Of a stretch of 27,144 nt of DNA, positions 1-18,600 are shown piece by piece (the stretch's first letter is position 1; each line of letters opens with the position of its first letter). Location: assembly GCA_002269645.1 (NCBI GenBank), contig NIVC01002175.1, positions 1 to 27,144 on the forward strand, read 5' to 3'. Both the position numbers and the translations under genes were made by a program. Under the pieces are notes generated by a model. The model was not told the origin of the DNA and searched no databases. It saw only the letters and a list, made by a program, of their open reading frames with translations. This stretch comes from Macrostomum lignano. Its lineage: Eukaryota.

Positions 1-297
1 GAATTCGAGTGCAAAGATCAAGAAACTGCAAAGGCGTGAAGCAAGTCAGTAGTAAGCAGCAAATTTCGCATGCGAACTATGTCGACGCGTTTCGAGTCCA
101 AGCAAGAGCAGATGGTTGCCATGACAGCGATTGTTTCCAAGAAACACGAAATCTTCACGTCGGTCATGGAGAAAAGAAGCCTATCGGTGTGGGAGGATAA
201 GCGAGTGTGGCTTAGCAGTAATCGAAGCCTGCCCTACGGACACTATGCGCTGACGCCCGCATCCCACGATCAGCTGAAGCGCATCCGACTGGTCTAG
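1..297 (+). CDS. Protein-primed family B DNA polymerase (pPolB), C-terminal fragment, frameshifted near 87-89
   Basis: ORF 9..200 gives KGVKQVSSKQQISHANYVDAF. ORF 70..297 gives SKKHEIFTSVMEKRSLSVWEDKRVWLSSNRSLPYGHY. Joined, they match the Polinton pPolB C-terminal pattern KGV..., S..H.i.t, K.sLs..dDKR, PYGHY. Confidence 0.85.
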
Positions 298-871
298 TGC
301 GGGTGTTTAACAGACTGTTTAGTACTTTTTCTTGCTTTTAGAGTTGTTTAAATTGCCAAATTCTGTTTTAAATGTAGTGACTTGCATGTAGTAACTTTTA
401 CAAATTTGTATGCTTGGCTAATTGCGCTAGATTTAGCTGTCAATTTGTTTTTGCGGCGTGAAATATTGATATCAATTTAAGTTTTACTTTTTATAAAGCT
501 GTGGCAAGTGCGCTCATACAATATTAATTCATTTTTGTTTGCTTTGTGTACTACTTGTTTAAAATGTGTTTTTGGTTTTTATCTGACATAAATTGTTCCT
601 GTAAATTCAATCAGCGTTTTAATCATATTTTCTCTATCACTTTTCTATTTCTCTTCTCTCGGTGCACATCGTTTGTTATAACGATGGTAGTATTGTTTAC
701 TTTCGGATTTGATATGCGTTTTGCGATACTTTTGGTGATGGGCTAAATACGTTTTTGAAGTGTTCCATAGCTGTCTGCCTGGGAAAATGAATGTAAAGAA
801 TACTAAGTTTATCCTTTTATTCACTTTTCACTAATCATTGAAATATTTGCGGCAAATTGCTTGACTTGACT

Positions 872-883
872 TTTATTTTTATT
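872..883 (-). promoter_or_regulatory. Tandem AATAAA polyadenylation signals overlapping the TBP-like stop codon
   Basis: Minus strand reads GAA TAA AAATAAA; AATAAA at 878-883 and 872-877. Confidence 0.55.
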
Positions 884-1449
884 CAATGGAAAGAACTACA
901 TTGAGTAGACGCATGCTATCGGTATGCAACTGATTCAAGGACCGAGCTCCACTGAGAACAAAAGAGCCGCTGTGAAAAAGCAGACATTTACAAAAGTTTA
1001 AATTGAAAATTAAAGCAGAAAAGGATTCTGGTTCATATTCGGCGTTTGGGATAATTGATTTTAACATTAATAAGGAAAGTGCGGAATGAACTGGGAGCTG
1101 TCCATGAGCAGTAATAGTTTTAATTCGAACACAAATTGTTTGATGAGGCAGCAGTTGAGCCGGCACTCTCCGATGCAGCATAGCCACGAAGCGACGGGCA
1201 GCCCTTTTGGCGTCTGCGTGGGTCTTGGCACCGCAGATGCTCAGTTGCCCAGTAGGGTAGAGTAGCAGAGTCACTCTGGGATCGCATCCGCTTGATGAGC
1301 ACCCGGGGCCAGACGGGCCGGTAGATCACATGAGCCATGCTGAGAGCCAGTTCCCGTAGAGGCAGCTGAGCGCCCCTGCCACCATCCAGTCTCAGATCTA
1401 CTCCGCCAACCAGATTGGTCACTCTTAGGGCTGTAGCTGGTGGGCTCAT
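879..1449 (-). CDS. TATA-binding protein (TBP)-like protein, about 190 aa after repairing one frameshift at 1278-1280
   Basis: ATG at 1449: MSPPATALRVTNLVGGVDL...ELALSMAHVIYRPVWPRVLIKRMRS, joined to VTLLLYPTGQLSICGAKTHADAKRAARRF...EYEPESFSALIF...CLLFHSGSFVLSGARS. Both TBP direct repeats are recognisable against LQNIV..., ALIF.SGK.V.TGAK, YEPELFPGLI and LLIF.SGK.VLTGAK. Confidence 0.88.
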
Positions 1450-1967
1450 TTCGATCGTCAACTTCTTCACCAAATCTGCTTCTGCCAACTTTACTGCTCG
1501 TGTGCCACGGACACTGCTCGCTTCTTAAGTTGATGCAGAACTTTGGCTTAAGCCAACTGTAGTGCAGCAACGAATTTCTCACTGCACAGCCAGTATCTGA
1601 ATCTTCAGTCGAGGGTGCTCCCAAATCTTCTAGGTTATAAACCTGTCTTCCAAGCAGCTCAGTCAGAAAAATCGACTTCCTTTCCCCATTTGACCAGATC
1701 GGACCACTGGCAATGCTCAGAATGTCTTCCGCCAGTTCCATGTACGGACGGGTTCCATCATTCCACTTAAACTGGTGCAGACTCTTAGATAGCTGTCTGT
1801 AGTAAACTCGCATGTCAGGTGAGACTCTCTCCCATGGATACGGAGGTGCGTACACATGGTGAGCAATGCGGTAGCTCCCGCTCTGATTTGAACAACTGCC
1901 AACTCCTTCACAACAAATTTTTTGCTTGTGCTGTTGCACGGAATCCTTGGAAGTCAATGTAGTTCAT
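1271..1967 (-). CDS. Polinton-associated DnaQ/DEDD-like fold protein; two frameshifts (1918-1923, 1877-1879); true 3' end uncertain
   Basis: Reconstructed MNYIDFQGF...KFVVKELAVV...HHVYAPPYPW...LHQFKWNDG...NGERKSIFLTELLGRQVYNLEDLGAP...CAVRNSLLHYSW resembles a family recurrent in animal Polintons. The fold call is inference. Confidence 0.55.
1522..1530 (-). promoter_or_regulatory. ACTTAAGAA motif upstream of TBP-like gene (putative late promoter)
   Basis: Exact 9-mer; the first downstream ATG on minus is 1449. Confidence 0.5.
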
Positions 1968-2008
1968 GATGCAGCTTTCCTTCGAAAATTTCGGAGTCAG
2001 TCCACCTT

Positions 2009-2017
2009 CTTATATAC
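2009..2017 (-). promoter_or_regulatory. TATA box GTATATAAG upstream of DnaQ-like gene
   Basis: About 42 nt upstream of ATG 1967; the identical 9-mer occurs at 9003-9011. Confidence 0.55.
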
Positions 2018-2067
2018 TTTTCTGGCAGGCAGTTTCAGCCAGGCTGTGTTGCTCCCGTACCCCTTGA

Positions 2068-2687
2068 CTAGACTCTCCTGTTCTTTCTCCAGTTCACCCC
2101 TCTGCTGGTTGCCATTTTCTTCTTAACTGATTTACCAATAGCGGAAAGCGGAACATTAAGCTTTTTCTGCTGCAGAAAATCGATGAACTCGTTCCACCCA
2201 ACTGGTTCACGCTCACATGGCGAATCCCTCACTGCGTGCTGAATCAAGTCCAGTATGTTTGAGGAAGGGATTGACGTGCCTGCGATTTCCACCTCCCCGT
2301 TTTCACAAACTCGAATCAGCTCTGGATTGGTGGACAGGATCGTCCACAGACTGCGAGCCCTGGTTTTGAATTTCTGTGGCACCGACTTGCTGATCTTCTC
2401 TTCCCAGGTGTTCATCTGGGGTGTCTCTGTTTTCATCAACTTGGCTTCAGTATTCGTGATCCTTCTTTTCCAGCGTGCTTGCGCTTGGCCAGCAAACTTT
2501 GCATTGCACTTTGGTACATGGCGGTTTTCACATCTTCTGGACAATCCTCGGCATACAAGATGTCATCGCATTTCTTCTGAGCCTGCTTCAAGTCAGCTTC
2601 AGTGGTAGTCTCATTTGGCTTCAAATTCTGCATCAACATCTCATACTCTGCTTTAGGAATCAGAACCATTTCTGAAAATTTGTTCAT
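2068..2687 (-). CDS. Conserved Polinton hypothetical protein, frameshift near 2466-2469
   Basis: N-part MNKFSEMVLIPKAEYEML...CDDILYAEDCPEDVKTAMYQ and C-part SVPQKFKTRARSL...GEVEIAGTSIPSSNILDLI...PVGWNEFIDFL...NVPLSAIG. The pattern is typical of a Polinton gene found downstream of the ATPase. Confidence 0.7.
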
Positions 2688-2991
2688 TTTGCTTCTTCTT
2701 CTTTACCAGCTTAAGCAGAATCGGGAGTATTTTGATGAAGCCAGCCTTCAACAAGTCTGTCTTTCTTCTTTTGTGAGTAATTTTTCGAATTATCTCTTTT
2801 GACTTTGCAAGAACAGCTTTTTCATCGAGCGAAAACGATAGATTGTTTTGTAAGAGATTATGGCAGGCCTCGACAAGAAAATAACGCACTTCTTTTGGAC
2901 AATTTTTTATCAACAGCCGCTTGAAGCGCACGGTATATTTAGGTGACGCAAGAACCGCAAAAAAACTTGCATGTGAATCAAGCACTTCCAT
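2653..2991 (-). CDS. Small conserved basic Polinton protein downstream of the ATPase
   Basis: ATG 2991: MEVLDSHASFFAVLA...LVEACHNLLQNNLSFS...LAKSKEIIRKI...GFIKILPILL. Matches the EcxNxL...L.k.k..lR.l pattern and sits at the syntenic position. Confidence 0.68.
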   Translation of the reverse strand: MEVLDSHASFFAVLASPKYTVRFKRLLIKNCPKEVRYFLVEACHNLLQNNLSFSLDEKAVLAKSKEIIRKITHKRRKTDLLKAGFIKILPILLKLVKKKKQNEQIFRNGSDS

Positions 2992-3712
2992 AGCGATGAA
3001 AACAATAGCTGATAAAAACAAGCTTCACTTTCACTTTCAAATACAAGATGGGGTCGCTGGTTGGGCAAAATTCTGGCCCGCACTCGCAGCTCATCGGGAG
3101 TTGATGGGTGAAAATCCAGGAACAGGTAAGCTCCCCTGCCCTGCGCGGTCACGTGCTTGAACACTGACAGCAGAAAGCCGGGCTTCTCTGTAAAGCACTG
3201 CCTGCCCAGTGCTGCAATCTGCAGCTGGTCTCTGGGGTTTTTCAAGATAGCTAAATACATTACATTCAAGCTCATTGTTCGCGACTCTTTTCCCTTGAAA
3301 AATATATTCTGAGTCAGCATCACCAAAAGCACGGCAAGTGATGTGCGATTCCTGTGAAAAAATTTCGCATTGAAGCAGAGTTTGAAGTTTCCTCTATTAA
3401 GTCATCGAAAACAACCAGGTCATTGGGCCTAAGTGCTGCCTCGATGTTGGTGGGAAATCCCTGGCGCAGCTGCACACCTAGGCTGCTCAGTTCTGCATGG
3501 CCTGCCTGTGAGATCCCATAGTACCACAGAACTCTGCCAGGCTTCACATCAAACATGACGTCTCTGTACTGGATCAGGTGTTTGACAAAGGTTGTTTTTC
3601 CTGCATTGGTGGGCCCGCAGAAAATCATGCAGCTTCCCTGCCTGAGGCGGATATCGTAGCAAACTTGCTTTTCTCCCATGTTTAATGCATAAATATTAGA
3701 AATCACGGACAT
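2910..3712 (-). CDS. FtsK/HerA-superfamily genome packaging ATPase, frameshift at 3325-3328
   Basis: Walker A GPTNAGKT, Walker B LVVFDD, then LTQNIFFKGKESRTMSLN and KNPRDQLQI...LGRQ, and YLFLDFHPSTPDELRVR. Confidence 0.93.
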
Positions 3713-3716
3713 CTTT

Positions 3717-3725
3717 TTCTTAAGT
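3717..3725 (-). promoter_or_regulatory. ACTTAAGAA motif upstream of ATPase
   Basis: Minus strand reads ACTTAAGAAAAAGATG; ATG at 3712, second Met at 3679. Confidence 0.5.
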
Positions 3726-3755
3726 TGGCTTCAAACCTCTGTAAGATTCTATCAT

Positions 3756-4214
3756 TCAAATGATTTTTTCATTAGCATGCAAATGCTTCAAAATCCCCTC
3801 AAATGACCGATTGAACAGAAACTTTTGATAAGCAAAATAGATGCAAAACACTCCGCATTTATTAGAGTTAGCACATTGAACTCTGTTTATATTGCTTCGG
3901 AGCCAAAAGCCAGTTGTTTTAATCTCTCGAAACAAATTATAAACCAAAGATAAAATTTCAGGTTCCCAGCCGAGGGAGTTGAACAACTCAATGCGATTTC
4001 CTTGCCCAACATAGCACACCACCCAGTGACCAAATGAGCCATTGTGCTGAAGTAGGACAAAAACAAACTTGTTTTCAAAGGAAATTGATGATCTAAATTT
4101 TCTTTTTACATTCAAGGGCAGAGAATTTTTATAGCGCAAATGTAAAGTAACTATGAGAAATTTTTGGTAAGGCAAAAATTTTCTGGCGAGATTAAGTAGT
4201 TGAATTGCATCCAT
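3756..4214 (-). CDS. Adenain-like cysteine protease (capsid maturation)
   Basis: GHW (His), ELFNSLG, and Q..NSNKCGVFC (oxyanion Gln and catalytic Cys); immediately downstream of the major capsid gene. Confidence 0.9.
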   Translation of the reverse strand: MDAIQLLNLARKFLPYQKFLIVTLHLRYKNSLPLNVKRKFRSSISFENKFVFVLLQHNGSFGHWVVCYVGQGNRIELFNSLGWEPEILSLVYNLFREIKTTGFWLRSNINRVQCANSNKCGVFCIYFAYQKFLFNRSFEGILKHLHANEKII

Positions 4215-4219
4215 GTCAA

Positions 4220-5503
4220 TTAAGATGAATAGTCCAGCAAAAGCTCTCGGTGCTTGGTGACCTCAATCAGCGAGTCATACAGGCACATAGCAATCAGGGA
4301 CACCGCTTCATTCAGAGCCTGTTGGAAGCGAATCTCCAGCCGCAGGTTGCCCTCCTTCTGTCCGTACCACAGAGCCGCTCCCTCGGGTGTGAGATCGAAT
4401 GCAAACACCGTGCTGTTGTTGGAGAAGAGCTGGTAGGGGATCCACGGAACCGAGTTTGTGTGGCTTGCAGATTGACAGCTTTTCAGGTAGTGCAAGTATT
4501 CTCTTACAAAGGAATTGTTTTCAGGTGTGAAGGCGCCGTGGCACACGGTTTCCCCACCTTTCTTTAGAGCCAATCGGCTAAGGTTGAAGCTCTGGAACTG
4601 GAACGGGCTCGCGTGATGATGACCGTTGAATGCTCGGTGGCTCACGAAGGCCAGCATGATAAACTTCGGCAATTTTCCATGAGTGAATCCTTCAATGTTT
4701 TTTGACTGAATACCCTGGGGTAGGATGAAGTTCTGCATTTCAGTTCGCTCGATGGGATACAGTGCATTTTGGTTTGTCAACCCCTGCTCGTGGGCCAGGC
4801 TGATGTGGGGCATCACTTTGACTCGGCGAAGATGCAGAATGCTGTGAGAGATTTCCATTCGGTATGCCGCGTTGTTTGCATTCGGGGTTCTGATGGCAAA
4901 GGCCCCATCGCTGGGGACCAGTTTGATGTGCAGGTGCAGATTGCTTAGCAGAAACACTGGGCACTGGAAAACATCGCTGAAGAGCGGCCCCGCATACTCC
5001 ATCCATTGGGATTCCCTGTGGCTCTCCGTGTGCTCTTCAGCTGCCGAGTTCGGCTCCAGGAAGCCAGCAGGGTAAAGTTTTAGTTGCTGGGCATCGGATG
5101 AGCTCATTAGTGCTTTGAAGTACGCATGGTAGGGATAGAGCTGGTCTCCACCAGACACCACTCGCTGGTTAATGCTCACAATTACATCTGAGAAGGCTGT
5201 AGACAGAACAAAATTTTCTGGGTGCACGTCACTGTCTCTGCGCTCGGTGATGATGCCATCTCCATCTCGAACATCCTCCCTCAGCAAACCCCCATCCAGT
5301 CTCACAAGGCGGCAGCGAATATAAAGAAAAGAATTCAGCAGATCTGTGTATTCATCGGCAGATTGGTGGCAGTCAAATTCAATGGGAGAGTTTGCAACAA
5401 TGGAATTAACTGGGTGAATATCAACATAAGTAGCTTTTTCAATGCAGGTTTGTAGAACGGGCGTCTTAAATAAATCAAGTCTGGGATTGAATCCGTAAGC
5501 CAT
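4220..5503 (-). CDS. Major capsid protein (double jelly-roll, Polinton PY/hexon-like), intact 427 aa
   Basis: N-terminal LDLFKTPVLQT...PIEFD...YTDLLNSFLYIRCRL..DG and C-terminal GNLRLEIRFQQAL...IEVTKHR; size and gene context fit. Confidence 0.92.
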   Translation of the reverse strand: MAYGFNPRLDLFKTPVLQTCIEKATYVDIHPVNSIVANSPIEFDCHQSADEYTDLLNSFLYIRCRLVRLDGGLLREDVRDGDGIITERRDSDVHPENFVLSTAFSDVIVSINQRVVSGGDQLYPYHAYFKALMSSSDAQQLKLYPAGFLEPNSAAEEHTESHRESQWMEYAGPLFSDVFQCPVFLLSNLHLHIKLVPSDGAFAIRTPNANNAAYRMEISHSILHLRRVKVMPHISLAHEQGLTNQNALYPIERTEMQNFILPQGIQSKNIEGFTHGKLPKFIMLAFVSHRAFNGHHHASPFQFQSFNLSRLALKKGGETVCHGAFTPENNSFVREYLHYLKSCQSASHTNSVPWIPYQLFSNNSTVFAFDLTPEGAALWYGQKEGNLRLEIRFQQALNEAVSLIAMCLYDSLIEVTKHRELLLDYSS

Positions 5504-5505
5504 GT

Positions 5506-5883
5506 CTATGACAGAGAGTCGAGCACGCGTTTCACAGTTTTCTTGCTGACTTTTCGCTTTCGCTTTCCTCCGCCTGCTCTATTCTTCTTTGCTTTCGTCT
5601 TCCTATTCTTAAGCTTTTTCCCACTAGCCTTGCTCGACCTCTTACTGCGATTTCCACCAGTTGCCTTTCGGGTGCCCTTCTTTTTCTTCAATCGTTTCGG
5701 ACTTGCTTCAGTATTTCTTTTGCGCCTGACGTTGCTAAGCGTCGAGGCTGATGATGATGATATAGCCGCTGGCGGAGGCTGGTATGTCATGATCCCTGGG
5801 AAGCTCCCACAGCCATAGAGTGCAGGCTTTTCGTGTCCTGTCCTCACCCCCGAATATTGCTGGATTAGCTGCTGGTAGTTCAT
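5506..5883 (-). CDS. Small Lys/Arg-rich protein, putative genome-condensing core protein (125 aa)
   Basis: ATG 5883 overlaps the minor capsid stop (ATGA). The C-terminal half is KRLKKKKGTRK...KKLKNRKTKAKK...KRKRKVSKK. Lies between the two capsid genes. Confidence 0.68.
   Translation of the reverse strand: MNYQQLIQQYSGVRTGHEKPALYGCGSFPGIMTYQPPPAAISSSSASTLSNVRRKRNTEASPKRLKKKKGTRKATGGNRSKRSSKASGKKLKNRKTKAKKNRAGGGKRKRKVSKKTVKRVLDSLS
5606..5614 (-). promoter_or_regulatory. GCTTAAGAA motif upstream of major capsid gene
   Basis: One mismatch to ACTTAAGAA; the first downstream ATG on minus is 5503. Confidence 0.42.
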
Positions 5884-6689
5884 TGAATGCGTTTCTCCTG
5901 AATTTGAACTGTAAGCAGAACAGGGCTGTGAGTCTGTGCAATCAGTGGGCAACCATAGATGTCACGGAGCTGAACTCGAATGCTGTGAAGAAGACTGATT
6001 CGTTGAATCGGGAAGAATATTGTTTTCTTAAATATTTTTGTTTGATAGTTGCCCCATTCAATGCCGGCTTTCATTCCAACTGTTCTCAACAAGGAGCTCC
6101 AGTTGCAATTAGTTGACTCAACGATACTGCAGTGCACATTGATTAAGCTGGTGCGCGGGCAGCCAATGCAATGCTCGGACACGCGGCTCCCTGGCTGGAT
6201 TTTCACAGCCTGGTTTCCAAATCCCAGCCAATGCAGAATTTTACTAGATGGAAGAAACAGCTCTGCTCTCGCAGTGTTGTTGTGCACCACAGTTCGTGAG
6301 TTGTGGATTTCGAACTTCATACCGAATTCCCTGTTGCCACTACGCCCCATCAGGCCGGACTCATCAGCCTCCATCTCAGACTCCCTGTCACTCATTGCAT
6401 CAAAGAACAGCGAATCAGAGTTGGCCAGCAGCTCATTCAGGCGCTCCACCAGCTCCTCCACTCTAGCAAAGCGTCCGGGTTGAAGAACCAGGGCCTCATG
6501 CTCTCTTCCATCTGAGACAGTGAAGCAGTAAGGCTCGTCAACATTGAACCATGCAGCAGGCAGATGGATTTCAGCCAGACCTGCCTCATAGTCCACATTT
6601 CGATCCAAGTAAATAGGTGAAGGCAGGTAAAAATTAAAGTCACTAGGAGTACCTTCAGCATGCTCACTGTTAATCAAAATAGTTCGCAT
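5880..6689 (-). CDS. Minor capsid protein (penton-like, Polinton PX)
   Basis: ATG 6689: MRTILINSEHAEGTPSDFNFYLPSPIYL...YEAGLAEIHLPAAWFN and C-terminal SIRVQLRDIYG. This is the typical Polinton penton pattern F...LP..i.L...evgL.EI..P..w.N. Confidence 0.85.
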   Translation of the reverse strand: MRTILINSEHAEGTPSDFNFYLPSPIYLDRNVDYEAGLAEIHLPAAWFNVDEPYCFTVSDGREHEALVLQPGRFARVEELVERLNELLANSDSLFFDAMSDRESEMEADESGLMGRSGNREFGMKFEIHNSRTVVHNNTARAELFLPSSKILHWLGFGNQAVKIQPGSRVSEHCIGCPRTSLINVHCSIVESTNCNWSSLLRTVGMKAGIEWGNYQTKIFKKTIFFPIQRISLLHSIRVQLRDIYGCPLIAQTHSPVLLTVQIQEKRIQ

Positions 6690-6726
6690 TATAATGATAA
6701 ACTTCAAGATGAGGGATGTGCCAAAG

Positions 6727-7797
6727 CTAAACCTTTCTTAAGTCTTTTTCATCCACCCAGCCAGTCGAGTCGTAGCCCGCTCATTTCACCAGATAGCGAA
6801 TTTTTCCCTTCCGCTTCTCCGTTTTCAGGATCTTCTCAATCACATACAGCCGCTGTGAGTCCGGGACAGCCTGCAGCTCGTGCTCATGGAAGAGTCCTCG
6901 AATCTCTTGCCCCCGCATGTCTTTAATCTTGTACATGTAGGGATAATGTTTTGGGGCTCTGCTCACCACGGTGTACACTTCCTCACTCCAGCTCGCTTTG
7001 TATCCCTTTTTGAATAGCCGTGGAGCATTGGAAATTCTCACTGACTGGTTTTCAGCGAATTTAGGCTTCCTTAATTTTTCTAGAGTCTCGACTGCTTTTC
7101 CGTCGTACAGGTTCATCCACACTTCAGATTCATTATCTTTGCAGACACTAGTGGGTGCCATTTTGATGCTTCTGTGGTAGGTATTGTTGTAGGATTTTAC
7201 CAGCTTAGGCAGCACATCAAGCCAGTGCAGTGTGCTCTTGTAGGTGAAGTAGCGCCACATTCTACTTTTCAGAGTCCGATTCCATCGCTCAATGACAGCC
7301 GCCTTCTGCTCGCTGTTAGTTGGGAAAGCCAGAATCCCTCTGTCAATGCAGTATTGACGGAAAGTGGAGTTGATAAATTCCTTCCCCTGATCTGTGCGAA
7401 CTGTGCGCGGCTGTCGCTTTGAACTTCTCAGTATGCTCTCGAATGCTGACTTCACTTCTGCAGCAGATTTATTTTTCAGTGCCTTGGCCCAAGCACATTT
7501 TGAGAGCACGTCAATGCATGTGAGAATATATTTGTAGCCTTTATTATGCTTTGCAAATGGAATCATTTCCACTAAGTCAAGTTCCCACTGATCATCGATT
7601 GCGCGCACTATGATTGGGGCCCTTGGATATCGCCTCCTAGCTGGCTTGTGCAGAGTGTGCACTGGCTGCTCGCTGAGCCACTGCTCAATGCTCTTTGCAG
7701 ATATTCGATCACCTCTTTGCCTCACTTCATGCAGCAACTTTGAGGCACAAGAAAAACTAGCCGGTTGCTCAGGTTTCAAATAAATTTTCTCCATCAT
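6727..7797 (-). CDS. Retroviral-type (c-INT) DDE integrase with C-terminal chromodomain interrupted by an in-frame TGA at 6781-6783
   Basis: WELDLVEM (D), RTDQGKEF (D), AAVIERWNRTLK (E). Chromodomain YVIEKIL...YLVK*AGYDSTGWVDEKDL continues in frame to TAG at 6727-6729. Confidence 0.96.
6735..6743 (-). promoter_or_regulatory. ACTTAAGAA motif upstream of minor capsid gene
   Basis: Exact 9-mer; the first downstream ATG on minus is 6689. Confidence 0.5.
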
Positions 7798-7849
7798 GGG
7801 TTTATCAAGATACGTGCCTATCCACCTGCTCTAGCTGTACAGTATTTTT

Positions 7850-7858
7850 TTCTTAAGT
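7850..7858 (-). promoter_or_regulatory. ACTTAAGAA motif upstream of integrase
   Basis: Exact 9-mer in intergenic DNA; the first downstream ATG on minus is 7797. Confidence 0.55.
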
Positions 7859-7906
7859 AGAAATTTATATTCCAATTAAATGATAGAGAAACGAGTGGCA
7901 AATTAA

Positions 7907-7912
7907 TTTATT
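7907..7912 (-). promoter_or_regulatory. AATAAA polyadenylation signal for the PC4-like gene
   Basis: About 210 nt past the stop at 8125, in an AT-rich spacer and just before the integrase motif. Confidence 0.35.
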
Positions 7913-8124
7913 ACTGTCAGATTGAAACCTCTAACATCGTAACAGTCGGTGTATTTTCCGAAAGCAAACAATCCATAAAAACGAACACTAAAACACTCGC
8001 ACACCAGCATTTCAGAAATAGCAGAGATAAAAAACAGCATAGTGCCGTCAGATATAGGCTGGATAATCATGTGCAAGCTAAAAGTAATTTAGTTAGTCCA
8101 ATGCATTCAAAGCATTCTAGCTGT

Positions 8125-8898
8125 TCAGTTATCAAAGCGAACATTGGGCAGCCTCATCGCGTCCTGCCGACGAAGTTGAAATGGCAGCTTTCGCTTCCTG
8201 CTGCTGCTGCTCACCGTCGAAGCCGCTGCATGCGCCCTGAACTGATACCACACCGGATCTTCCTCAAGGTTGGTGTCCCGCTGCGGAAGCAGTCCAGCAT
8301 CAGAATCAACCAAAGGTATCGGTGTGGATGTGATAGGCTCAGTCACAATGCGCGGCCTTGTGGGCGAGCTAACGTCCTCGTCATCAGCATGCTCTCCGCC
8401 CTCATCAGTCTCCATTATGGGCTTCGTGTCCTGGTCAGCCTCCAACTTGAGCTTCTTGTCCTCTTCCTCCTCTTCCTCATCAGACTCCAGCTCGTACTGC
8501 ATTGAGTTCCTCAAGGGAGCCACCAGCTGACCGTCGATCCAGGAGGCGATTTTCCAGAGCTTCTGCCACAGCGGCGGAGTCAGTGGTACGGCGTTTCGTC
8601 TCAAAAACTCCTCGCAGCAATCTTCCGGCAGCCGTTTGAGCCAAATGATGCCGCCTTTGACTTCCACAAACTTATCGAAGCCGAGTTTCACGACCTTGGG
8701 CTCGTTGTTGCGTGCAGAAATCACAAGTGAGCGTTTCACCTCCTTCAATTTCTTCCATTGGTGAACATTCAGGTTGAATCCTGGGACGCCTGGCTTCAGA
8801 CTTGCCGTGCTGCCGTGTCGGTAAAACTTGCGAATAGCGATAAATTTTTGTCCTTCAAACTCCTGGACTTGTGCCTTATAGCCTTCACAGATGTCCAT
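8125..8898 (-). CDS. PC4/Sub1-like ssDNA-binding protein with two tandem PC4 domains and an acidic tail
   Basis: YKAQVQEFEGQKFIAIRKFY...LKPGVPGFNLNVHQWKKLKE aligns by eye with the PC4 CTD (YVSV.DFKGK..IDIREYW...KPGRKGISL..EQW..LKE). A weaker second copy ends VPLTPPLWQKLWKIASWID. Confidence 0.8.
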   Translation of the reverse strand: MDICEGYKAQVQEFEGQKFIAIRKFYRHGSTASLKPGVPGFNLNVHQWKKLKEVKRSLVISARNNEPKVVKLGFDKFVEVKGGIIWLKRLPEDCCEEFLRRNAVPLTPPLWQKLWKIASWIDGQLVAPLRNSMQYELESDEEEEEEDKKLKLEADQDTKPIMETDEGGEHADDEDVSSPTRPRIVTEPITSTPIPLVDSDAGLLPQRDTNLEEDPVWYQFRAHAAASTVSSSSRKRKLPFQLRRQDAMRLPNVRFDN

Positions 8899-9002
8899 TT
8901 TCCTTTCGCAATTGAAAACTCACAAAAGTTAAAAGCTGAGGAAAAGTTCGGATGAAATTTTGGATTTGAAAAATTGAGAATTCTTTCTTGTCAGTTTCGG
9001 GG

Positions 9003-9011
9003 CTTATATAC
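9003..9011 (-). promoter_or_regulatory. TATA box GTATATAAG upstream of PC4-like gene
   Basis: An Inr-like TCAATTT lies about 33 nt downstream (A at 8975); ATG at 8898. Confidence 0.55.
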
Positions 9012-9130
9012 CCTCGACCGAACCACCCCAAACCACCCATCCCACTCCGGGCTCTGTGATTGGCTCTTTCGCAAACATTATTTCCAATTACATAGATTAA
9101 CATTCATTCAGCTAAGCTAACCCACTCCAT

Positions 9131-9568
9131 CCTATCTCTGCAGTGTTAACCACCCCCAATGCAAAGAGATAGGCCGCCTCTCCTCCTATCTCTGCAGTGT
9201 TAACCATCTCCAGTGTAAAGAGATAGGCCGCCTCTCCTCCTATCACTCCAGTGTTAAGCAGAGATAGAGCTCATATCTCTGCAGTGCTTAGCCGTCCCCA
9301 ATGCACAGAGATAGAGCTCATATCTCTGCAGTGCTTAGCCGTCCCCAATGCACAGAGATAGAGCTCATATCTCTGCAGTGCTTAGCCGTCCCCAATGCAC
9401 AGAGATAGAGCTCATATCTCTGCAGTGCTTAGCCGTCCCCAATGCACAGAGATAGAGCTCATATCTCTGCAGTGCTTAGCCGTCCCCAATGCACAGAGAT
9501 AGAGCTCATATCTCTGCAGTGCTTGGCCGTCCCCAATGCACAGAGATAGGGCTCATATCTCCGCAGTG
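9131..9568. repeat. Subterminal Polinton tandem array: two approx. 54-bp units, then six full and one partial 47-bp hairpin units
   Basis: Unit CAGAGATAGAGCTCATATCTCTGCAGTGCTTAGCCGTCCCCAATGCA starts at 9259, 9306, 9353, 9400, 9447, 9494 and partially at 9541. Each has an 8-bp stem CAGAGATA/TATCTCTG. Confidence 0.95.
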
Positions 9569-9637
9569 TATTTTTCCCTGTACATTTGCATTGCCGCCTA
9601 TCTCGCCAGTGCTAGTGCGGCAGTATCATAATTCGCC

Positions 9638-9647
9638 CTACTACTCT
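9638..9647 (-). other. Polinton terminus (outer end of terminal inverted repeat)
   Basis: Minus strand reads AGAGTAGTAG. Homology to the TRP paralog stops exactly here. The partner TIR is outside the window. Confidence 0.75.
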
Positions 9648-10318
9648 GGTCCGATGGTCTCAAAGTAGCTCAGGAAGGACACTGACCGGAAGCCCCACAG
9701 CAAGAATGCGGTGCTGAGAACCATCTGGCAGGAATAGGCAGTGGGGTAGGAGATGCCGTGTGAGAAGATGATCCACTTCCAGACCAGACCGATCCACAGG
9801 AATAGAATCGCGGCACAGTCAAACATATTGAGCTGTTCCTTAAAATATCGCGGCAACATAAATGCTTTGCTGCCTTTCAAAAAGTGTCGTTTGCTAGCGC
9901 CCTTGTAAATTTCAAACGATTCTTGCAGCGTAAATGAAGCCAGGTAGAGTGCCATTATCACGTCTGGAATAGCCCAGTCAAAAGTCACCCGGAAATCAAT
10001 CAAGTACCACGCAAAAAACACTAAAAAGGCAATGAATGCAAAGAAGTTTATAGAGTAGTTAGTTTTAGGAGAAAGGCAGTTGTCTTTTGGTGCTTCGTTC
10101 CATTTTTTCTTAAGGAGTCGGTGGATGCACTCAGTTGCAAAAATATCTTTTGAATCGAGCAGCTTGACCATTTCGTAAACGGAGTAGTAATTGACGGTAT
10201 CCTTTTCTGGCTCCACAGCGTTCTTTTCAGTATCCTTTTCGTAGATGGAACGTTGGTTCTCCTTGTACCGGCTCGGAAATTTTGGGCCGAGTACGACTTT
10301 TTTCTCGTCGTCAGACTG

Positions 10319-10474
10319 CTGGCTTTGCGTTTGATCATTGCCATTAGGCTGTTCTTCAGAGTTTGTCTCTTGATCAGCTTTTTTGCTGTCTTGCCGTTTG
10401 GCCAGATTTTTTGCTCTTTTGTTGTCTGACGGCTGGCTTTGCGTTTGATCATTGCCATTAGGCTGTTCTTCAGA
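10319..10474. repeat. 42-bp exact direct repeat, 114-bp period, inside TRP paralog 1
   Basis: Copies at 10319-10360 and 10433-10474, encoding SEEQPNGNDQTQSQ twice. Confidence 0.9.
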
Positions 10475-12804
10475 TTTTTCCTCTTTATAACTGCCAATTT
10501 TTCCGTTTAAATACTTCATTAATAGCTTCTTATCTTTAGCGTTATCGATATTAGCGTACAAGCACTCAAGAGCATTCACTGCAATTTGAAGGAGCTTTGC
10601 TTTAAGTTCCAGCAGTTGATTTTGCGTGGTGGTGTCTTCGCTATTAGCGATTTCCAACCTCAGGTACAATAGCAGGCTTAGTGTCACTGGGATCAACTCA
10701 AACTGCCGTGTCAGAATAAGGTCCGGCAAGATTTTCAGTTTTCTGAGGAACAGAGCGACGTCAACTACCAGCATCTCCGATGATCCGGTCGGTGAATGGA
10801 TCCGAGGGAGCTGCTTGTACTTGGCCAATGAGGTATCTCGTTTCTTTCCTTTTTCTTTTACCTGTTTACTTTCTTCTATCTGTTCTTTTCCGTTGTTGCT
10901 TTTGTGCTGCAAGTAGTCCCAAAGTCGTGCCTCAACTTCTCGAGTAACCCGTTTCAGTCGGAGAGCACATCGGAACATGATTGGCGAATCAAGATCTAAC
11001 GCCTGGAACAAGATACACTCATCCGTGCGTTCATCATCTTCATTGCCTTCCCCAAGCTCAACATTTACGTTTCCAATGAATTTACTCTGCTTGCTATCTT
11101 TGCCTCTGGCAACTTTATCGCGGGATGCTTTGTCCAGCATGGAGAAAAGAAGTTGACGAGCTATAGTTCTGCGCGGCAATTGGAGTCCGTGGTGAACAGG
11201 ATCGATTAGACACAGAATTTCTAACTTAGATTTCTCTTCCTGGCGTTTAAAAGTTTTGTCAACAACTTTCATTCGGCTAATGATTTTGGCGAAGTCGAGA
11301 GCAGTCAGCCCAGAATGCGTAGCAGCGGCGAGGGCCTGCCAATTTCTTCGACGCATAAGCCATTTGATGTTCTCTTCATTGTTGGTCTCGCAGGCGAAGT
11401 GCAGACAGGTGGCACCCTTGAGCGGACCGCTGCTTACTGTAAGCTGCAGCAGGGACTCCGTTGGCGAATCAGACAGTTTGGCCAATAGTGGAGCTACTTT
11501 TTTGAGTTTGTATTTGCTCGCAAACGAATGGATGGCGTGAAAGCCGTTTAATGCCTTTAGAAGCTTTTTTAATTCTCTGCGAAAATCCGCGACGAGGCAT
11601 GTATTGTCTTCCTTTGAGTCTTTCCCCTCATTTCCTACCGAAGCTGCTTTACTCAATATCTTTTCCAAAGTATCTTCTGTTAGGGTCGAAGCGTGTAGGC
11701 AGTTCTGACCGAGGTCATTTTCCTCTGCTATTTCGGTTACTGACGCAATATTCAAAAATACTTCCATAAAATTTTCAGCACGTTTGTCAGGTCCGTCTTG
11801 GCTGTCATCTGCAAGTTTTCCGGTATAGAAGAACAGTGCGTGGAGCAGGGTATTTTTGTCGAAGTCCGTGCACGGCAAAATTTTGAAACCATTTCCTTTG
11901 GGCAGAAGAAGATCAAAATTCCACCCCATGCACGCGTAGAAAAGGCACGATCTGCCATCTCCGTCGAGTGTGCTCTCAGAAATCAGTTCATTGTGCTTTT
12001 TCTTCAAGTGTTTCGTAAATTTCGAGCTTTGAAATGCGAGATGCAACGCGCTTTTGCCATGGTTATTCATGAGAGACCAGTGCTGTCTATCAGTGCAATG
12101 AAATAACTTCCTCGCTGTTTTGTGCTTTTTCTCTTCTTTGTTGAAACTCATTGCAGCCAGAATAAACGCCGTGTTTCCACACTTGTCTCTTTGTTCAATG
12201 TACTTCTTGAAATCGATCTTACCTTCGTTTCCAAGACTTTTCAGCTTTTTATAGATTTTTACTACCGTCTGATCTTTGCAACTTTTACTGTCGATTGCTC
12301 TCTGGAGTAGCGTGAGTCTCTGAGCTTTTTGAACTTTTTGAACTTTTTGAGTTTTTTGAGATTTTTCATTTGTAGTGGCGTATTCGCCTATCAGTGTGGA
12401 GACCATTTCTTTGTCCACTTTGTCAAGAACGGACAACAGTTCGTCCACAATTTTATCATTTTGGTTCTCGTTCTGAACTGCATAATGGCAAAAGTTGTAG
12501 CCATCTTTGTCCTGTGCTTCCAGGCATTCTTTATCGAGATTGCAGGCAGTTTTCAGTAGAAAACTGAGTTCCTTAGGGCTCGCATGCATTGCAGCCAGAT
12601 GCAGCACTGTCTGGTCCTTTTTGTTCTTTAACAAGAGAACTTTTTTTGCACTTTCCGCTTCTGTATCTTCTTTATTATGTGCACTTATTTTCGCAAGAAC
12701 TAACCCAAATAGTGTAGATTGTTCTTCATTTGTTTTATGGTTCGGCATAGGTTTACCTTGCGATTCATTACCGCATTTTTTGCGTTGCCCTTCGTTGGCT
12801 GCTT

Positions 12805-13193
12805 GATTGCTTCTGTCTTCAGGAGTAACAGTACCGCTGCAACAGGAACTCGCGCCGCGAATCCAGCAAACGCAGCGTTCTCCAAAACTTTCTTCCTCGT
12901 CACTTTTCTCGCTCTCACTTTCCTCCTCGTTGTCACTTTCCTTGCTGCTACTTTCCTTGTTGGCACTTTTCTCGTTGTTGGTTATCTGGTTATTAACCTT
13001 CATTGCTGGATTGCTTCTGTCTTCAGAAGAACCAGTACCGCTGCAACAGGAACTCGCGCCGCGAATCCAGCGAGCGCATCGATCTCCAAAACTTTCTTCC
13101 TTGTCACTTTCCTCCTCGCTTTCACTTTCCGTGCTGCTACTTTCCTTGTTGACAGTTTCCTGGTAGTCAATTACCTGGTTTTTAACCTTCATT
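12805..13193. repeat. Approx. 200-bp in-frame tandem duplication inside TRP paralog 1
   Basis: Copies start at 12805 and 13009, encoding KESSS..ES.EE..F.G.RC..WIRGASSCCSGT...EDRSN twice. Confidence 0.9.
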
Positions 13194-15291
13194 TTTTCAC
13201 ATTTCTCTGCGTTTTCTTCGCTGCTGTCTGAGTCGCACGAGTAATCAGTCGAAATATTTTTCTCTTCTGGGCGGTTTAAGTTGACGGCGGCAAAATGGAA
13301 CACGGTATCGCCATCGCAGTTTGTTCTGTAAAAGTATTTGGGTTTCTGCACCATCTTAATAATCTCTTTCAGAGATTCTTTTGAGAAGCAACTCATACAG
13401 TAATGCAGAGGCGTTGTCCGGTGGCTGTCTTTTTTCAGCATGCAGTTTTTTTTATGCTTGAAGTGTTCTATAATTTTTAAAAGCGTCTTTTCGCCCCCTG
13501 GAGTCATTGCGGCGTAGTGCGCTGCAGTTCTCTTGCATCCTTCTTCTGTATCGTCTTTCACCAGTTTTTCGGTCGAAAATTTTTATTTCGCTTTAAGAGA
13601 TTCCGGGCCTTCTGGAATTTTTTTGCTTTTGTAAACTGAAGAAGTTCCAAATATGGGTCTTTTCGGTCTTCTGTGTTTTCTGGGTCTTCAGACTCTTCTG
13701 AGTCTTCTGGGTCTTGAGGGTCTTCTGTGTCTTTTTCTTTGTTTGCAGACATTTGAAAGTCTGAATTCTCAACCGAACATTTTTCCGAATTCAGAGATTG
13801 TTTGCTAGCTGTATTCCTCGCGTCGGGAAGTCCTGGTGGCAGGGTATCCCCGTCGGTCTCGTCACAAGAGCTGCTGTCATAGTAGACCGCGTGCTTTCCT
13901 TGAACACTCACGCTCGACTTCGGCTGCTGCATTATCCAACCAGCTGAGTCGCACTCGCGCTGGGCTGCCGCTTCTGTGATGGGTTTTTGCATTTTATAGT
14001 TTGAGTTTCATTCCTTTTTTTAATTTGTCCCGCAAAATTATTGATCGGATAACCACATAAAAACAGTTGATTGGCTTGAAAGCTTACCCATCAATCTAAG
14101 TTAGTATAGAATTGTCAACAAACAATGTTCAAGATAGTCAAAGCACACGACTTTAAATTGAGTAATAAATCGCTAGTGAATCTACCTAAGATTTACGAAA
14201 TCATCAAAAATAATTAATGAGAAATGAATTCGGAATTACCGGTGTACAGTGTTTACAGTGCAGTTAGAGCTACTTAATCACTTCAGTGTGCTCGTATTTA
14301 CTCTATTACAGCGTAATAAATTTACATTTGAATCCTAATTCTCATGAATATCATTATTTAACCATAAGTTTCCTAATGCCCAAGAATTCTCTGCTTGCTA
14401 CTTATCAGTAGCATACATTGATTATGAATAATTCAGACTCGGTCGACGCTATCAAACCTAACGTAGTAACTATGGCTTGTATCTCATCTACTCCGTATGT
14501 TGTTTGTTCTGTGCTCTTTAGCGACTCATTCATTATTTAAGGTCTGCCGCTCTCCTCTCCTTTTTATTCATCATATTTCACTTCGGCCAGGCAACTAAAA
14601 TGACAACAACTATGCCTGAATCTAGCGAGCCCAACAAATAGCTGCTATAGAGTTGCTGTCACAGTTGCGGCTCTTTGTACGGAACGAATACAACTGATGC
14701 AAAGTGAGCTTATTCTACAGCTACTAAGCGATGCTAAAGAGGTGCAATAGCTACAGCTTGTATGGCGACAGCAATAAGGTTTCAACTAGTCGTATTACTG
14801 TTGTGTTTGTAAAGGCAATAGTGTGATTTCAACCAGTAAAATCTATAGTTCACAGACATCTACATATTTCTCCGACTATCACAGCCTTATTAAATCTTTC
14901 TTATGAAACGAACTGTCTGATCTTTAATCTCTATATTGGAATATTTAATTAATAATTATAAAGAATGAAAGCAAAAATCTCAAGATTGCGCGTATTCATT
15001 AATTAGACAGATGTTCAATTTTTAATAAGCATACAATAAGTTTTACAAGGTATTAAGTTAATACCTTGAATAAGGATCCCTTATTCACTTCTACTTTTGG
15101 TCGGCGTCCTGTGTCTCTTACCTACATTACCTCGAGATGCATTACCTCGCTACTCTCAGCGGAACCCGAACTCTCAATTAATTCGCCTCCAAATTGTAAT
15201 TGTGGACGAAGTCTGCGTTTCACTAATCCTAACTACTCTGTAGAGACACTGATATAGAAACTTTTAAACCTTTTATCTATCCCTTTGTCTA

Positions 15292-15656
15292 GGGGGGCCG
15301 TAGCCCAGCGGTAGCGCAGCTGCTCTGGTGTGCCAGCGACCCAGGCTCGATTCCAAGTGCAGTCACATTAATTTGGGGCTGAATTGGAATCTCGGCTTGG
15401 CTCTGCTCGTGCAATTAACGGCCTTGAGAGCCGACCCCCCAAGGCGCAGTGAAGTGTACATGCCTAACGATAATTTAAAGTTAGGGCCGCTGTACACTCC
15501 TGTGTGAGTGTGTGCCTGCGTACGTATCCGCGCGCTTGTATGCCTGCTCAGGGGAGTCGGCGGAATGGGCAGTAATGCCTCTCGCCGGTTGTGTGCCTAT
15601 GTCGCTTAAAGTGCGCCAGGGTGCACACAACCCCCCTGCCTCTATCTATATCCATA
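15292..15656 (+). mobile_element. tRNA-derived SINE with 14-bp target site duplication
   Basis: A box TAGCCCAGCGG at 15301-15311 and B box GGCTCGATTCC at 15344-15354. TSD TATCCCTTTGTCTA at 15278-15291 and 15657-15670. TCTA-like simple tail. Confidence 0.88.
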
Positions 15657-16660
15657 TATCCCTTTGTCTACTAACATTGCCCAAACGGGAACTACTGCCA
15701 GTATGTTTAAAGCACATCTACTTTAGCAATCTACCCAATTACAAAAGAATGTTCAGTATTCGTACATAGCTGGTGTTCTTCTACGATCGCAATAAAGGTC
15801 GAGTCTTTTTCTATCGAGTTTTCCCGACTCTTCCCTATTTACTTGACGACAAAAGTCTCCCATCTTTAGGCCTTCCATTCCCAGCAGCATAGTGAAGGCT
15901 TGTTAGAAAAAGGTATGATTGAAATTCAGGTCTAAACTACGAGCGTACATGAAACAGACTGAACCATAATAAGTTATAGTACACAGAAACGCTTGTAGGT
16001 CTCAGTCAGATTTTTTAAATCTTTATATTAAATAATAAAAAATAATCAAATGCAAAAAATCGGTATGCTTACCTCTAGTACACTTTTAGTTCGCTTTTCG
16101 GGGGAAACTAACTTCGAATTTAAAGGAGAAAATGTAAAAAGCAATACAGCAACCAGCAGCACCAATGTGCTTTGATAATGCTTGCTAGAAAAATAGCTGC
16201 CTCAAAGTTTTTATGGGTTTATAAGAAGGTTGAAAAGATACAAAGAACTCATTCATTCGTTGCCTCTTCTTTACTTAAGCAACCTGGCAACGGTATATAG
16301 TTGAACTGTACCTTGCCAGTATTTTAGTCGTTTTTCTACGGGTGTATACCACTTCTAGGGGTAAGAGAAACTACTCAACTACTCATATCTTTAACTAGAT
16401 GGTATTAAGAGAATTTATTGCACGTGTCCCAAAAGAAGCGTATAGTTCCACCTTGCTTTCATGTCATTGTATTGTGGCAAGGGGTGGAGCGTGAGCTCAG
16501 AATACTGTGAGCAGTGCCGTGAGTCTACTATCTATCTCCCGCCGTTCTGTACTTAGGCTCGTTTTGAAACTTTACCGGACTGTATTGACCCGTCTTCGGA
16601 CTTCACAGCTTGTTGTTCATAAATACGACGTATACTGATATGTTTTGGGATCACTTGGAT

Positions 16661-16716
16661 TGAATAGACCCTGATGACGTCTATATGATTAACGAAACGC
16701 AATGGCAACAAATAAA
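16661..16716 (+). other. Hammerhead-core-like motif followed by AATAAA; possible Penelope-like element pLTR remnant
   Basis: CTGATGA at 16671-16677, GAAAC at 16694-16698, AATAAA at 16711-16716. Stems I and III do not pair convincingly. Confidence 0.33.
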
Positions 16717-17512
16717 AATTATGCTATTCTTCTTAATACTAAAACTGGTGCGATGTTTCTTTGTTTGTCTGTTGGTTTGTATGTTGCCTAGACTACTTGC
16801 AACTCAGTAAGTATTTGATAGGTTTTGTAGAGGATTTGGAGACGATTTGGAAGATGAGATTCAAGTCATGAGATTTCAGCTGATGGATTTCAGGTAATGG
16901 AATTCTGGCGGTGGGAGTTCTTCCCCTTTCTCCTCCGTAGGAGGAGTTTCACTCCTCGTATATTTTTCTGTTGGCTTTTGTTTTCTTACTACCTTATTTT
17001 CACGTGCAATTGAATTTAGCTCGTAAATGCTATTTACGAGTATTAAGACTGCGCTTAATTTGAACATCGTTCTAAAAAATTAAGACTTTTTAATACATAA
17101 CGATGATGAAATTCAGCTATTATTGGACAAACTAGGATACCAGAAAATTATTTTATCAATTTGTTTACGTTCTAATTGTTCATCAGTAAATAAGAAAGAA
17201 TTGATGCAAGGAAACAATGACGAATTATTATTTTCTCCACGCTTACAAATTATTTAACATTGAATTTTAGCAATCTAAATGTTCTCTCCAATTAATTTGT
17301 ATTTAAGATTTTAATCGAGAATAATAATTCTAAATATGGGTCGGACAGTTTCGCTGCAAGTCAGCGTTGGGCAGTTGAAAGTTAAATAAGATTTTTTGAG
17401 TAAACCATAGAGAAGCAGCAAACCTTTTATTTGGACACTAAAACAGGAGGCGCCGTAGTCATGCAGAACTTCCAATTCGCGGTAAGATAATCTTCTCCGC
17501 ATAGATACTCTC

Positions 17513-17710
17513 AATAGATAATCTCCTCTGAATAGATAATCTCTTATGAATAGATAATCTTCTCTGAATAGATAATCTTTTATGAATAGATAATCTTCTC
17601 TGAATAGATTATCTCCTCTGAATAGATAATCTCCTCTAAATAGATAATATCCTCTGAATAGATAATCTCCTCTGAAAAGATAATCTCCTCTGAATAGATT
17701 ATCTTCTATG
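17513..17710. repeat. 18-bp minisatellite, 11 copies
   Basis: Consensus AATAGATAATCTCCTCTG in exact 18-bp phase from 17513. Confidence 0.95.
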
Positions 17711-17749
17711 CAGGGGTAAAAATAATTGCTTCTTTCTCCCTATAGACAG

Positions 17750-18150
17750 AGGGATAATCTACTCTCATGGATATGGATAAATCTCCTCTCATGAATATGG
17801 ACAATGTCCTCTCATCGATCTGGATAATCTTCTTTCATATTTAGAGATAATCTCCTCTCATGGGTTGGATAATCTCCTCTCCTAGATTAAGTAATCTACT
17901 CTACATGGATGTGGATAATCTCACATGATCTCAAATGGATTTTCATTCTCATTATTAGTCTCATCCCATGGATATAGATAATCTCAACTCAAAGATATTG
18001 ATAATCTCCTCTTTTAGACATTGACAATCTTCCGTACATCTATATGAACAATCTTCTCTACGTGGATGTGGATAATTTGTTCTACTTAGGTCTCTCTTTG
18101 TACATGGACATTGAAAATCTCCTGTCATGGACGTTAATAATCTTTTCCAC
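17750..18150. repeat. Degenerate approx. 23-bp repeats related to the 18-mer
   Basis: Recurring GGATAATCTCCTCTCATGGATAT-like units. Confidence 0.7.
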
Positions 18151-18161
18151 ATAGATTCGCT

Positions 18162-18428: not shown

Positions 18429-18600
18429 CTAGCGAGGGGTTTATATTGCGAGTGAGTTACATGACGAATGTGAGGCTTTGATAATACGCCAAGGTAAATC
18501 ATTTTCGTTAGTTCTATCGATTTACGTGTGTTTCGTGCATCTGGATTGCAATGATGCACATTGTATTACGAGCATAGGATTTAATAATTGCGTCACTTAC

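Follow-up and report, generated by a model that had tools for sequence, protein, structure and literature searches.

Whether animal Polintons are autonomous viruses, and how such an element could time its capsid genes without an RNA polymerase of its own, are questions raised by a 27,144-nucleotide (nt) stretch of Macrostomum lignano DNA (assembly GCA_002269645.1, contig NIVC01002175.1, positions 1 to 27,144 of the forward strand; hereafter the window). Bases 1 to 9645 of the window are part of a Polinton/adintovirus-like provirus whose minus-strand genes are, in order, PC4-like, integrase, penton-like, basic core, major capsid, protease, ATPase, two conserved open reading frames (ORFs), exonuclease-like and TATA-binding protein (TBP)-like. 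A sequence-only reading of this DNA had proposed that a recurring 9-mer, RCTTAAGAA, marks late-type genes in the manner of a baculovirus late promoter. The motif is real, and its interpretation as a late-type promoter element in a Polinton is supported at the sequence level by position, strand, held-out copies and a second clade. On balance RCTTAAGAA is probably a variant TATA box that would be read by the element's own TBP, much as the herpesvirus viral TBP (vTBP) reads the TATT box. Early and late are assigned throughout by gene type, from which we infer timing.

The RCTTAAGAA box upstream of late-type genes

The element contains five copies of RCTTAAGAA, all on the coding strand and 4–102 nt before a gene start. 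As the sequence-only reading had reported, ACTTAAGAA occurs on the minus strand at 1522, 3717, 6735 and 7850 and GCTTAAGAA at 5606; for these and for a core variant at 2710, the first downstream ATGs are the gene starts 1449, 3712, 6689, 7797, 5503 and 2687, at gaps of 72, 4, 45, 52, 102 and 22 nt, respectively. The boxes, their weaker variants and the canonical-type boxes of the element are as follows.

7850 to 7858, minus strand: ACTTAAGAA box, intergenic, integrase start 52 nt on
6735 to 6743, minus strand: ACTTAAGAA box within the integrase 3' end, penton-like gene 45 nt on
5606 to 5614, minus strand: GCTTAAGAA box within the basic core-protein ORF, major capsid gene 102 nt on
3717 to 3725, minus strand: ACTTAAGAA box, intergenic, upstream of the packaging ATPase, whose first ATG is 4 nt on and next in-frame ATG 11 codons further
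2710 to 2716, minus strand: GCTTAAGC core variant before the PZ-like gene (2687), in agreement with the YTTAAGC form of a related clade (L023, below)
1522 to 1530, minus strand: ACTTAAGAA box within the exonuclease-like ORF, TBP-like gene 72 nt on
6025 to 6033, minus strand: weak variant ATTTAAGAA, core-protein gene about 150 nt on
2120 to 2128, minus strand: weak variant AGTTAAGAA, upstream of the exonuclease-like gene, of doubtful status
2007 to 2016, minus strand: canonical-type TATATAAGAA, putative early promoter before the exonuclease-like gene; a TATA box is found there also in L023 and L045
9003 to 9010, minus strand: canonical-type TATATAAG, putative early promoter before the PC4-like gene

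The weak variants at 2120 and 6025 are present as had been noted, but their first downstream ATGs (2115 and 5956) are not gene starts, and an additional CTTAAG(C) at 1547–1552 had been missed. That most copies sit within the upstream ORF holds for three of the five full copies, the other two being intergenic; most boxes do so because the genes are packed. The box at 6735 uses TTA, the rarest Leu codon (17 of 248).

The motif had been chosen post hoc, and it survives a control that preserves every protein sequence and in which any word may win. Codon-preserving shuffles reached five copies of RCTTAAGAA in 0 of 5000 trials (mean 0.23, maximum 3), and the best k-mer of a shuffle was equally extreme in 6 (k=9), 10 (k=8) and 16 (k=7) of 400, while no dinucleotide shuffle out of 100 reached five copies (mean 0.82). 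All five copies fall inside the 14% of the element that lies within 110 nt upstream of one of 11 starts (p 5.8e-5), TTAAGAA has seven sense-strand copies and no antisense copy, and host DNA at 9650–22600 holds no copy of RCTTAAGAA. Against an order-2 background the motif family supplies the top word at k=7, 8 and 9 (9-mer Bonferroni ~0.016); under an order-3 Markov background the 9-mer fails the Bonferroni threshold. The core CTTAAG, a palindrome, is by itself not enriched in the window (10 seen vs 9.1 expected, 42 of 100 shuffles).

The motif is not taken for a poly(A) signal or terminator, since the copies come before the stop codon of the ORF containing them. Separately, TATAAAT lies at 7863–7869, 5 nt upstream of the integrase box, where the pair may form a dual early/late promoter.

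Held-out copies in sister contigs and a second clade

The element is multicopy in the host genome, with sister families about 80% alike, and its sister copies are visible only as contig differences. Two near-identical database proteins carry the name of Macrostomum lignano, a laboratory flatworm, as host. In this copy the gene whose start lies at 2991 lacks the motif (upstream region 2992–3050, minus strand; no match with up to 2 mismatches within 300 nt). Conservation in sister elements, whose absence the sequence-only reading had named as refuting its proposal, is nevertheless seen at this gene: in 4 of 4 runs, contigs show a complete motif no more than 50 nt before its start, at all or nearly all depth, and so does a diverged sister contig. 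None of the 40 substitutions listed, with 873 more beyond them, falls in the five window boxes.

A form of the box recurs in a distant Polinton clade. Among 81 related loci (62 non-redundant; capsid 26–34% identical), L023, L031 and L045 (capsid ~29% identical) bear YTTAAGC before the same gene classes, namely the ATPase, PZ-like, integrase, core and capsid genes, and a TTAAGC variant lies upstream of their penton gene where that gene is present in the sequence. With hand-picked starts, YTTAAG is found at -120 to -10 of non-early genes in 5/9 cases in the window, 7/13 in L023, 6/9 in L031 and 7/11 in L045, against a null expectation of about 1 each (p<=1e-3). Blind ORF calls give 8/17, 6/12 and 7/16 for L023, L031 and L045, and none of the other 27 rows is significant for YTTAAG. 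L023, L031 and L045 form one clade and therefore count as one independent lineage. In all four elements the protease gene (3756–4214 in the window) is without a box; it directly follows the capsid gene, whose transcript may serve for both. A TATA box precedes the exonuclease-like gene in 3/3 elements that contain it.

The exact 9-mer is no family-wide marker, with at most one sense-strand copy in any of the 81 loci, most of which are without the word. TAAG-type words are absent from the top enriched words pooled over 85 upstream windows, and scans of viral contigs (0, 1, 1, 1 and 5 loci) and genome contigs (0) revealed no further YTTAAG-type element. As a side observation, the PZ-like gene of L023, L031 and L045 has TATAAA or TATAAG immediately ahead of its box, a possible dual early/late arrangement.

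A divergent TBP encoded by the element

The sequence-only reading had overlooked a TBP homologue in the same element. A natural 190-residue database protein (P0058), 99% identical to the matched part of the window TBP, contains both TBP repeats, and its predicted fold is the TBP saddle (predicted local distance difference test, pLDDT, 94.8; predicted template-modelling score, pTM, 0.85; template-modelling score, TM, 0.83 to human TBP 1cdw). The L023 TBP is likewise predicted to adopt the two-lobed TBP fold, so that two-lobed TBPs are found in both the window lineage and L023; the L023 protein has 29 homologues without genomic context. In L023 and L045 the TBP gene adjoins the same exonuclease-like and PC4-like genes.

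In cellular TBP four phenylalanines bend the DNA, and the preference for T at box position 1 comes from a proline of the C-lobe (PMC12529657). The contact with TFIIB is made by two glutamates, also in the C-lobe, and a Phe to Tyr change at L5.1 affects TATA binding (PMC7221094). In our alignment (A4) the first N-lobe Phe column is occupied by Pro in 13/13 Polinton-type TBPs, 6 of them so called from similarity alone, and by Phe in 3/3 other rows, while in the C-lobe neither the Phe pair nor the second YEPE glutamate varies, and the other glutamate hardly does. Window-lineage TBPs (4/4 rows) have Tyr at N-lobe L5.1 and Ser in place of the C-lobe Pro, and the six strong window boxes all begin with C; L023-clade TBPs retain the C-lobe Pro, and T stands at the box start in 12/22. 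The C or G changes are at the 3' end of the box, the part that is read by the N-lobe pair.

ATG spacing and the likely start site

Non-start ATGs are unevenly distributed downstream of the box. Across 28 boxes in four elements they occupy 11/626 positions up to +30 vs 0/751 beyond (Fisher p 1.6e-4; cuts from 25 to 35 all give p<=0.003). In control ORFs without a box the ATG frequency is 1.21% up to +30 vs 0.89% beyond, and at the latter rate about 7 ATGs would therefore be expected beyond +30. TATAAAC sites show 10/473 up to +30 vs 4/689 beyond. Such spacing would be expected if transcription began near +30 and not if it began within TAAG.

Box type across related Polintons

At the position upstream of the capsid gene, which mostly falls in the core-protein ORF, TATAAA is found in 19/42 relatives vs 28/378 gene-internal windows (p 1.6e-9), and the synonymous TACAAA is not enriched there (4/42 vs 33/378). 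A TCA[G/T]T initiator follows at +30/+31 after 7/28 TATAAA sites before the capsid gene. The window box before the capsid gene (5606) occupies the same position as the TATAAA of the relatives.

A quick capsid tree (62 rows, 7 short loci left out) contains a 37-row clade with support 99, in whose loci, many of them short, no TBP was found. All TBP matches lie outside this clade (the window, L023, L045, L020, L080, L006, L021 and L015). The base 3' of TATAAA is A or G in 11/11 cases within the 37-row clade and C in 8/8 loci outside, and the box types form the series TATAAA[A/G], TATAAAC, YTTAAGC and CTTAAGA. Within the window the early-type box TATAAGAA and CTTAAGAA differ in their first two bases only. 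Since the outside group is no supported clade and kin share states, these correspondences are a pattern and no test of co-evolution. We hold it an even question whether a deep branch of animal Polintons has divergent TBPs co-evolving with private boxes (TATAAAC, YTTAAGC, RCTTAAGAA) while using host TFIIB and RNA polymerase II (Pol II).

Several of these loci have features of their own. TATAAA, often as TATAAAC, precedes ORFs in L006 (5/6), L021 (4/5) and L080 (7/15), and the Polinton TBPs of L006, L021, L015 and L080 are shorter or more divergent. On a 44.7-kb viral contig a TBP (L082:9842-10390) is of cellular type at the N-lobe Phe and is accompanied by TATATA-rich upstream regions; no capsid or integrase match was found in the part of that contig examined.

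Proposed mechanism and alternatives

In the mechanism that we favour, RCTTAAGAA would serve the virion, packaging and integrase genes as their core promoter, and the early genes (PC4-like, exonuclease-like) would retain TATATAAG, to be read by host TBP and Pol II. The divergent TBP of the element would bind the variant box, recruit host TFIIB via its retained YEPE glutamates and thereby use host Pol II, with transcription starting about 30 nt downstream of the box. The location of the TBP gene behind such a box would imply positive feedback, with the first TBP supplied by read-through from the exonuclease-like gene just upstream and its TATA promoter.

A number of observations weigh against this mechanism. 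Blind ORF calls in the window give 3/12, which is not significant alone (p 0.1). All 11 extra ATGs come from L023, L031 and L045, which are related elements; canonical TATAAA sites show a weaker contrast (13/1040 vs 13/1796); and, if the ATPase begins at its second ATG, an out-of-frame ATG at +34 counts against a start near +30. No initiator peak follows YTTAAG (at most 2/30 at any position), nor does an initiator follow TATAAAC (0/21), unlike canonical TATAAA (16/46); the missing initiator would fit a TBP acting outside TFIID, and equally a start elsewhere. No DNA-contact residue common to the window and L023 clades alone was found in A4, the two clades are not grouped with support in the quick tree, and a TBP does not predict YTTAAG: among the 7 rows with a TBP, TATAAA(C) is the box of L080, L021 and L006, and L015 has neither type. 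The window TBP gene is itself behind a box, unlike those of L023 and L045, and its first expression therefore needs another route. Finally, the Epstein-Barr virus protein BcRF1 binds TATA and TATT alike in vitro (PMC4893493), so that a viral TBP need not set specificity alone.

Several of these points would be accommodated if the box were a late core-promoter or activator site upstream of the start with another reader, whether a host TBP-related factor, a different element protein or TBP with a partner, the element TBP then having a role such as general boosting. Box type is not fixed by TBP presence, the two YTTAAG lineages lack a common specificity residue, the window TBP gene stands behind a box, and the element has further conserved ORFs of unknown function. 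We nonetheless consider another reader unlikely, given that the non-canonical boxes (YTTAAG, TATAAAC) are restricted to lineages outside the clade without TBP and that TBP contact residues are altered in a shared manner. Less probable again is a baculovirus-like initiator, with the start inside TTAAG and the RNA polymerase of a helper virus, e.g. a nudivirus-like one. TAAG is the start-site motif required by the baculovirus RNA polymerase (PMC9786725), some Polinton-like viruses are helper-dependent (PMC11296320), TTAAG is the invariant core in both lineages, and no initiator is seen at +30; set against this are the 11 extra ATGs within 30 nt of the motif with none beyond, the restriction in the window to YTTAAG-type copies before late genes (not ATAAG or GTAAG), the occurrence of the motif in the TATA-box position of relatives, and the element's own TBP. 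Of the baculovirus model put forward by the sequence-only reading, the promoter role is supported. There is less support, on the same grounds, for a viral RNA polymerase that initiates within (A/G/T)TAAG, and no polymerase gene was found among the 15 element ORFs in the window, which covers part of the element, or the 18 ORFs of L023.

The two remaining explanations dispense with a promoter. Trans-splicing exists in flatworms, and the motif contains AG and is strand-specific, as a trans-splice acceptor would be; RNA cleavage and packaging or protein-binding sites belong to the same group of post-transcriptional or non-promoter signals. An acceptor would keep the nearby extra ATGs in the message, however, no polypyrimidine tract precedes the copies, and relatives have TATA and an initiator at this position, so that we give such signals very little weight. 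Chance together with codon bias in Lys/Leu/Arg-rich ORF ends is scarcely credible and already largely refuted: although the motif was post hoc, the order-3 Markov test failed correction, the core is not enriched and the blind-ORF result for the window is weak, the codon-preserving shuffles, the two intergenic copies, the occurrence in three reading frames or contexts, and the held-out copy before the 2991 gene together with the second clade all speak against it.

The element and its insertion site

Pfam support among the element genes is limited to integrase, protease, PC4 and TBP (15 element ORFs scanned), and the names capsid, penton, core, PW, PZ and exonuclease are putative, given from gene order and unnamed homologues. 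We take the exonuclease-like gene to be of the DEDD type, and the gene at 2068–2687 and the 112-residue gene at 2653–2991 are presumably the PZ-like and PW-like genes.

70 to 297, plus strand: C-terminal end of protein-primed DNA polymerase, 45% identical over 58 residues to the L023 polymerase; converges on the late cassette
879 to 1449, minus strand: TBP-like gene, split over two reading frames (PF00352, 5.3e-11)
1271 to 1969, minus strand: exonuclease-like gene, fragmented, no Pfam match
2068 to 2687, minus strand: PZ-like conserved Polinton gene, two ORFs, homologues in relatives
2653 to 2991, minus strand: conserved 112-residue Polinton gene (PW-like), homologues in relatives
2910 to 3712, minus strand: packaging ATPase, two reading frames; P-loop ORF with orthologues in relatives, of which that of L023 matches Pox_A32 weakly
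3756 to 4214, minus strand: adenain-like protease (PF00770, above cut-off)
4220 to 5503, minus strand: putative major capsid protein, 427 residues, from gene order and unnamed homologues
5506 to 5883, minus strand: basic core-like protein
5880 to 6689, minus strand: penton-like gene, from gene order and homologues in relatives
6725 to 7797, minus strand: rve integrase with chromodomain-like tail and an in-frame stop near the end (PF00665, 1.7e-13)
8125 to 8898, minus strand: PC4-like gene with acidic tail (PF02229)
9125 to 9645, minus strand: element end with tandem repeats (54 and 47 nt) and terminal AGTAGT; the insertion interrupts a host ankyrin/TRP-like ORF

The integrase, adenain protease and packaging ATPase expected of a Polinton or adintovirus are thus all found, and the polymerase is of the protein-primed family B type, its C-terminal 75 residues matching the L023 polymerase, which is itself PF03175-positive; the remainder of the gene lies beyond the window. 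The capsid and penton candidates, putative counterparts of the double and single jelly-roll capsid proteins of Polintons, have homologues in identical gene order in 81 loci and match no Pfam family or PDB sequence (a capsid profile against PDB sequences gave 0 matches). No TFIIB-like ORF was found by Pfam in the element. In this copy the reading frames of the TBP, exonuclease-like, PZ-like and ATPase genes are broken, and the integrase has a late stop. In L023 the Polinton polymerase (L023:13684-17724, minus strand) carries an N-terminal C2H2 finger and an endonuclease VII domain.

Of the terminal inverted repeats and target-site duplication expected of a Polinton, the window can show one side: one element end lies in it and the other outside. 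Just inside the end, at 9125–9568, are tandem repeats of 54 nt (2.4 copies) and 47 nt (6.6 copies, 98% matches), and the terminal AGTAGT (9641–9645) provides the stop codon of a 1288-residue host ankyrin/TRP-like ORF (9641–13507, minus strand). This ORF is cut where residue 745 of a 935-residue paralogue (18877–21684) corresponds, indicating insertion into a channel-like host gene. The host DNA further contains tandem arrays at 22700–25407 (20-nt unit x134), 17508–17704 (18-nt unit x11) and 26576–26817 (28-nt unit x8.5).

Novelty and implications

In the literature outside subscription journals and Repbase we found no account of a Polinton late box or of a TBP in animal Polintons. In the accessible parts of PMC8502044 and the preprint 10.1101/697771, mentions of TBP are confined to figure legends on related viruses whose hosts are not animals, and the pictured genome maps may label more; the supplement text has no match for TBP. 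The accessible text of PMC11296320, 10.64898/2026.10.13.758929, 10.1101/2023.08.22.554363 and PMC11131425 has no mention of TATA or promoters. What is new from the window, as read from its sequence and that of its relatives, is a TTAAG-type box in two lineages and a box type matching lineage.

These features suggest a private box-plus-TBP switch for late genes. The box marks genes of the virion programme, integrase included, and its pairing with an element TBP makes the question of timing testable; the element TBPs are also natural variants with which to study how TBP reads DNA. If a deep branch of animal Polintons does have TBPs co-evolving with private boxes, this would be an independently evolved one-protein switch for late transcription and evidence of an autonomous viral gene cascade in these elements, and the TBPs would form a natural set of variants that differ in DNA specificity.

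Comparison with known systems

In its gene content the element resembles the Polintons, Mavericks and adintoviruses, with which it shares a protein-primed family B DNA polymerase (pPolB), rve integrase, protease, ATPase, putative capsid-like and penton-like genes and multicopy occurrence in an animal genome (PMC8502044; 10.1101/2023.08.22.554363), and probably also terminal repeats; the accessible text of these two papers describes no promoter motif. Like the baculovirus late promoter (A/G/T)TAAG, in which TAAG is the start site for the viral RNA polymerase (PMC9786725), the Polinton box has TAAG inside it, precedes virion genes and often lies within the upstream ORF. Unlike that promoter, it has fixed flanks and an ATG spacing that points to a start further downstream, and no multi-subunit RNA polymerase gene of that kind was seen among the 15 window and 18 L023 ORFs.

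Large double-stranded DNA viruses also encode two-lobed TBPs for a viral promoter class, mostly with a viral TFIIB alongside and with diverged C-lobe glutamates (PMC7221094), and poxvirus VITF-3 (PMC12917281) is placed with these viral TBP-TFIIB pairs. The Polinton TBP differs from these in that its glutamates are kept and Pfam finds no TFIIB-like ORF beside it.

The closest likeness is to the late promoters of beta- and gammaherpesviruses, where a TATT box is read by a viral TBP-like protein (BcRF1/ORF24/UL87) with host Pol II (PMC4893493, PMC12529657). In both systems a non-canonical box stands in the TATA position before structural genes, as in the window, where the variant box replaces TATA on structural genes and TATA is kept on early genes; both encode a TBP-like protein, and no RNA polymerase of their own is seen. 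The Polinton box is RCTTAAGAA or YTTAAGC instead of TATT and belongs to an unrelated virus group, its 190-residue TBP stands alone and keeps the TFIIB-binding glutamates that ORF24 is without, and Pfam finds no homologues of the other herpesvirus late factors, such as the partners in the six-protein viral pre-initiation complex. By analogy, then, the Polinton box and TBP would work like the herpesvirus vTBP system while being no member of it.

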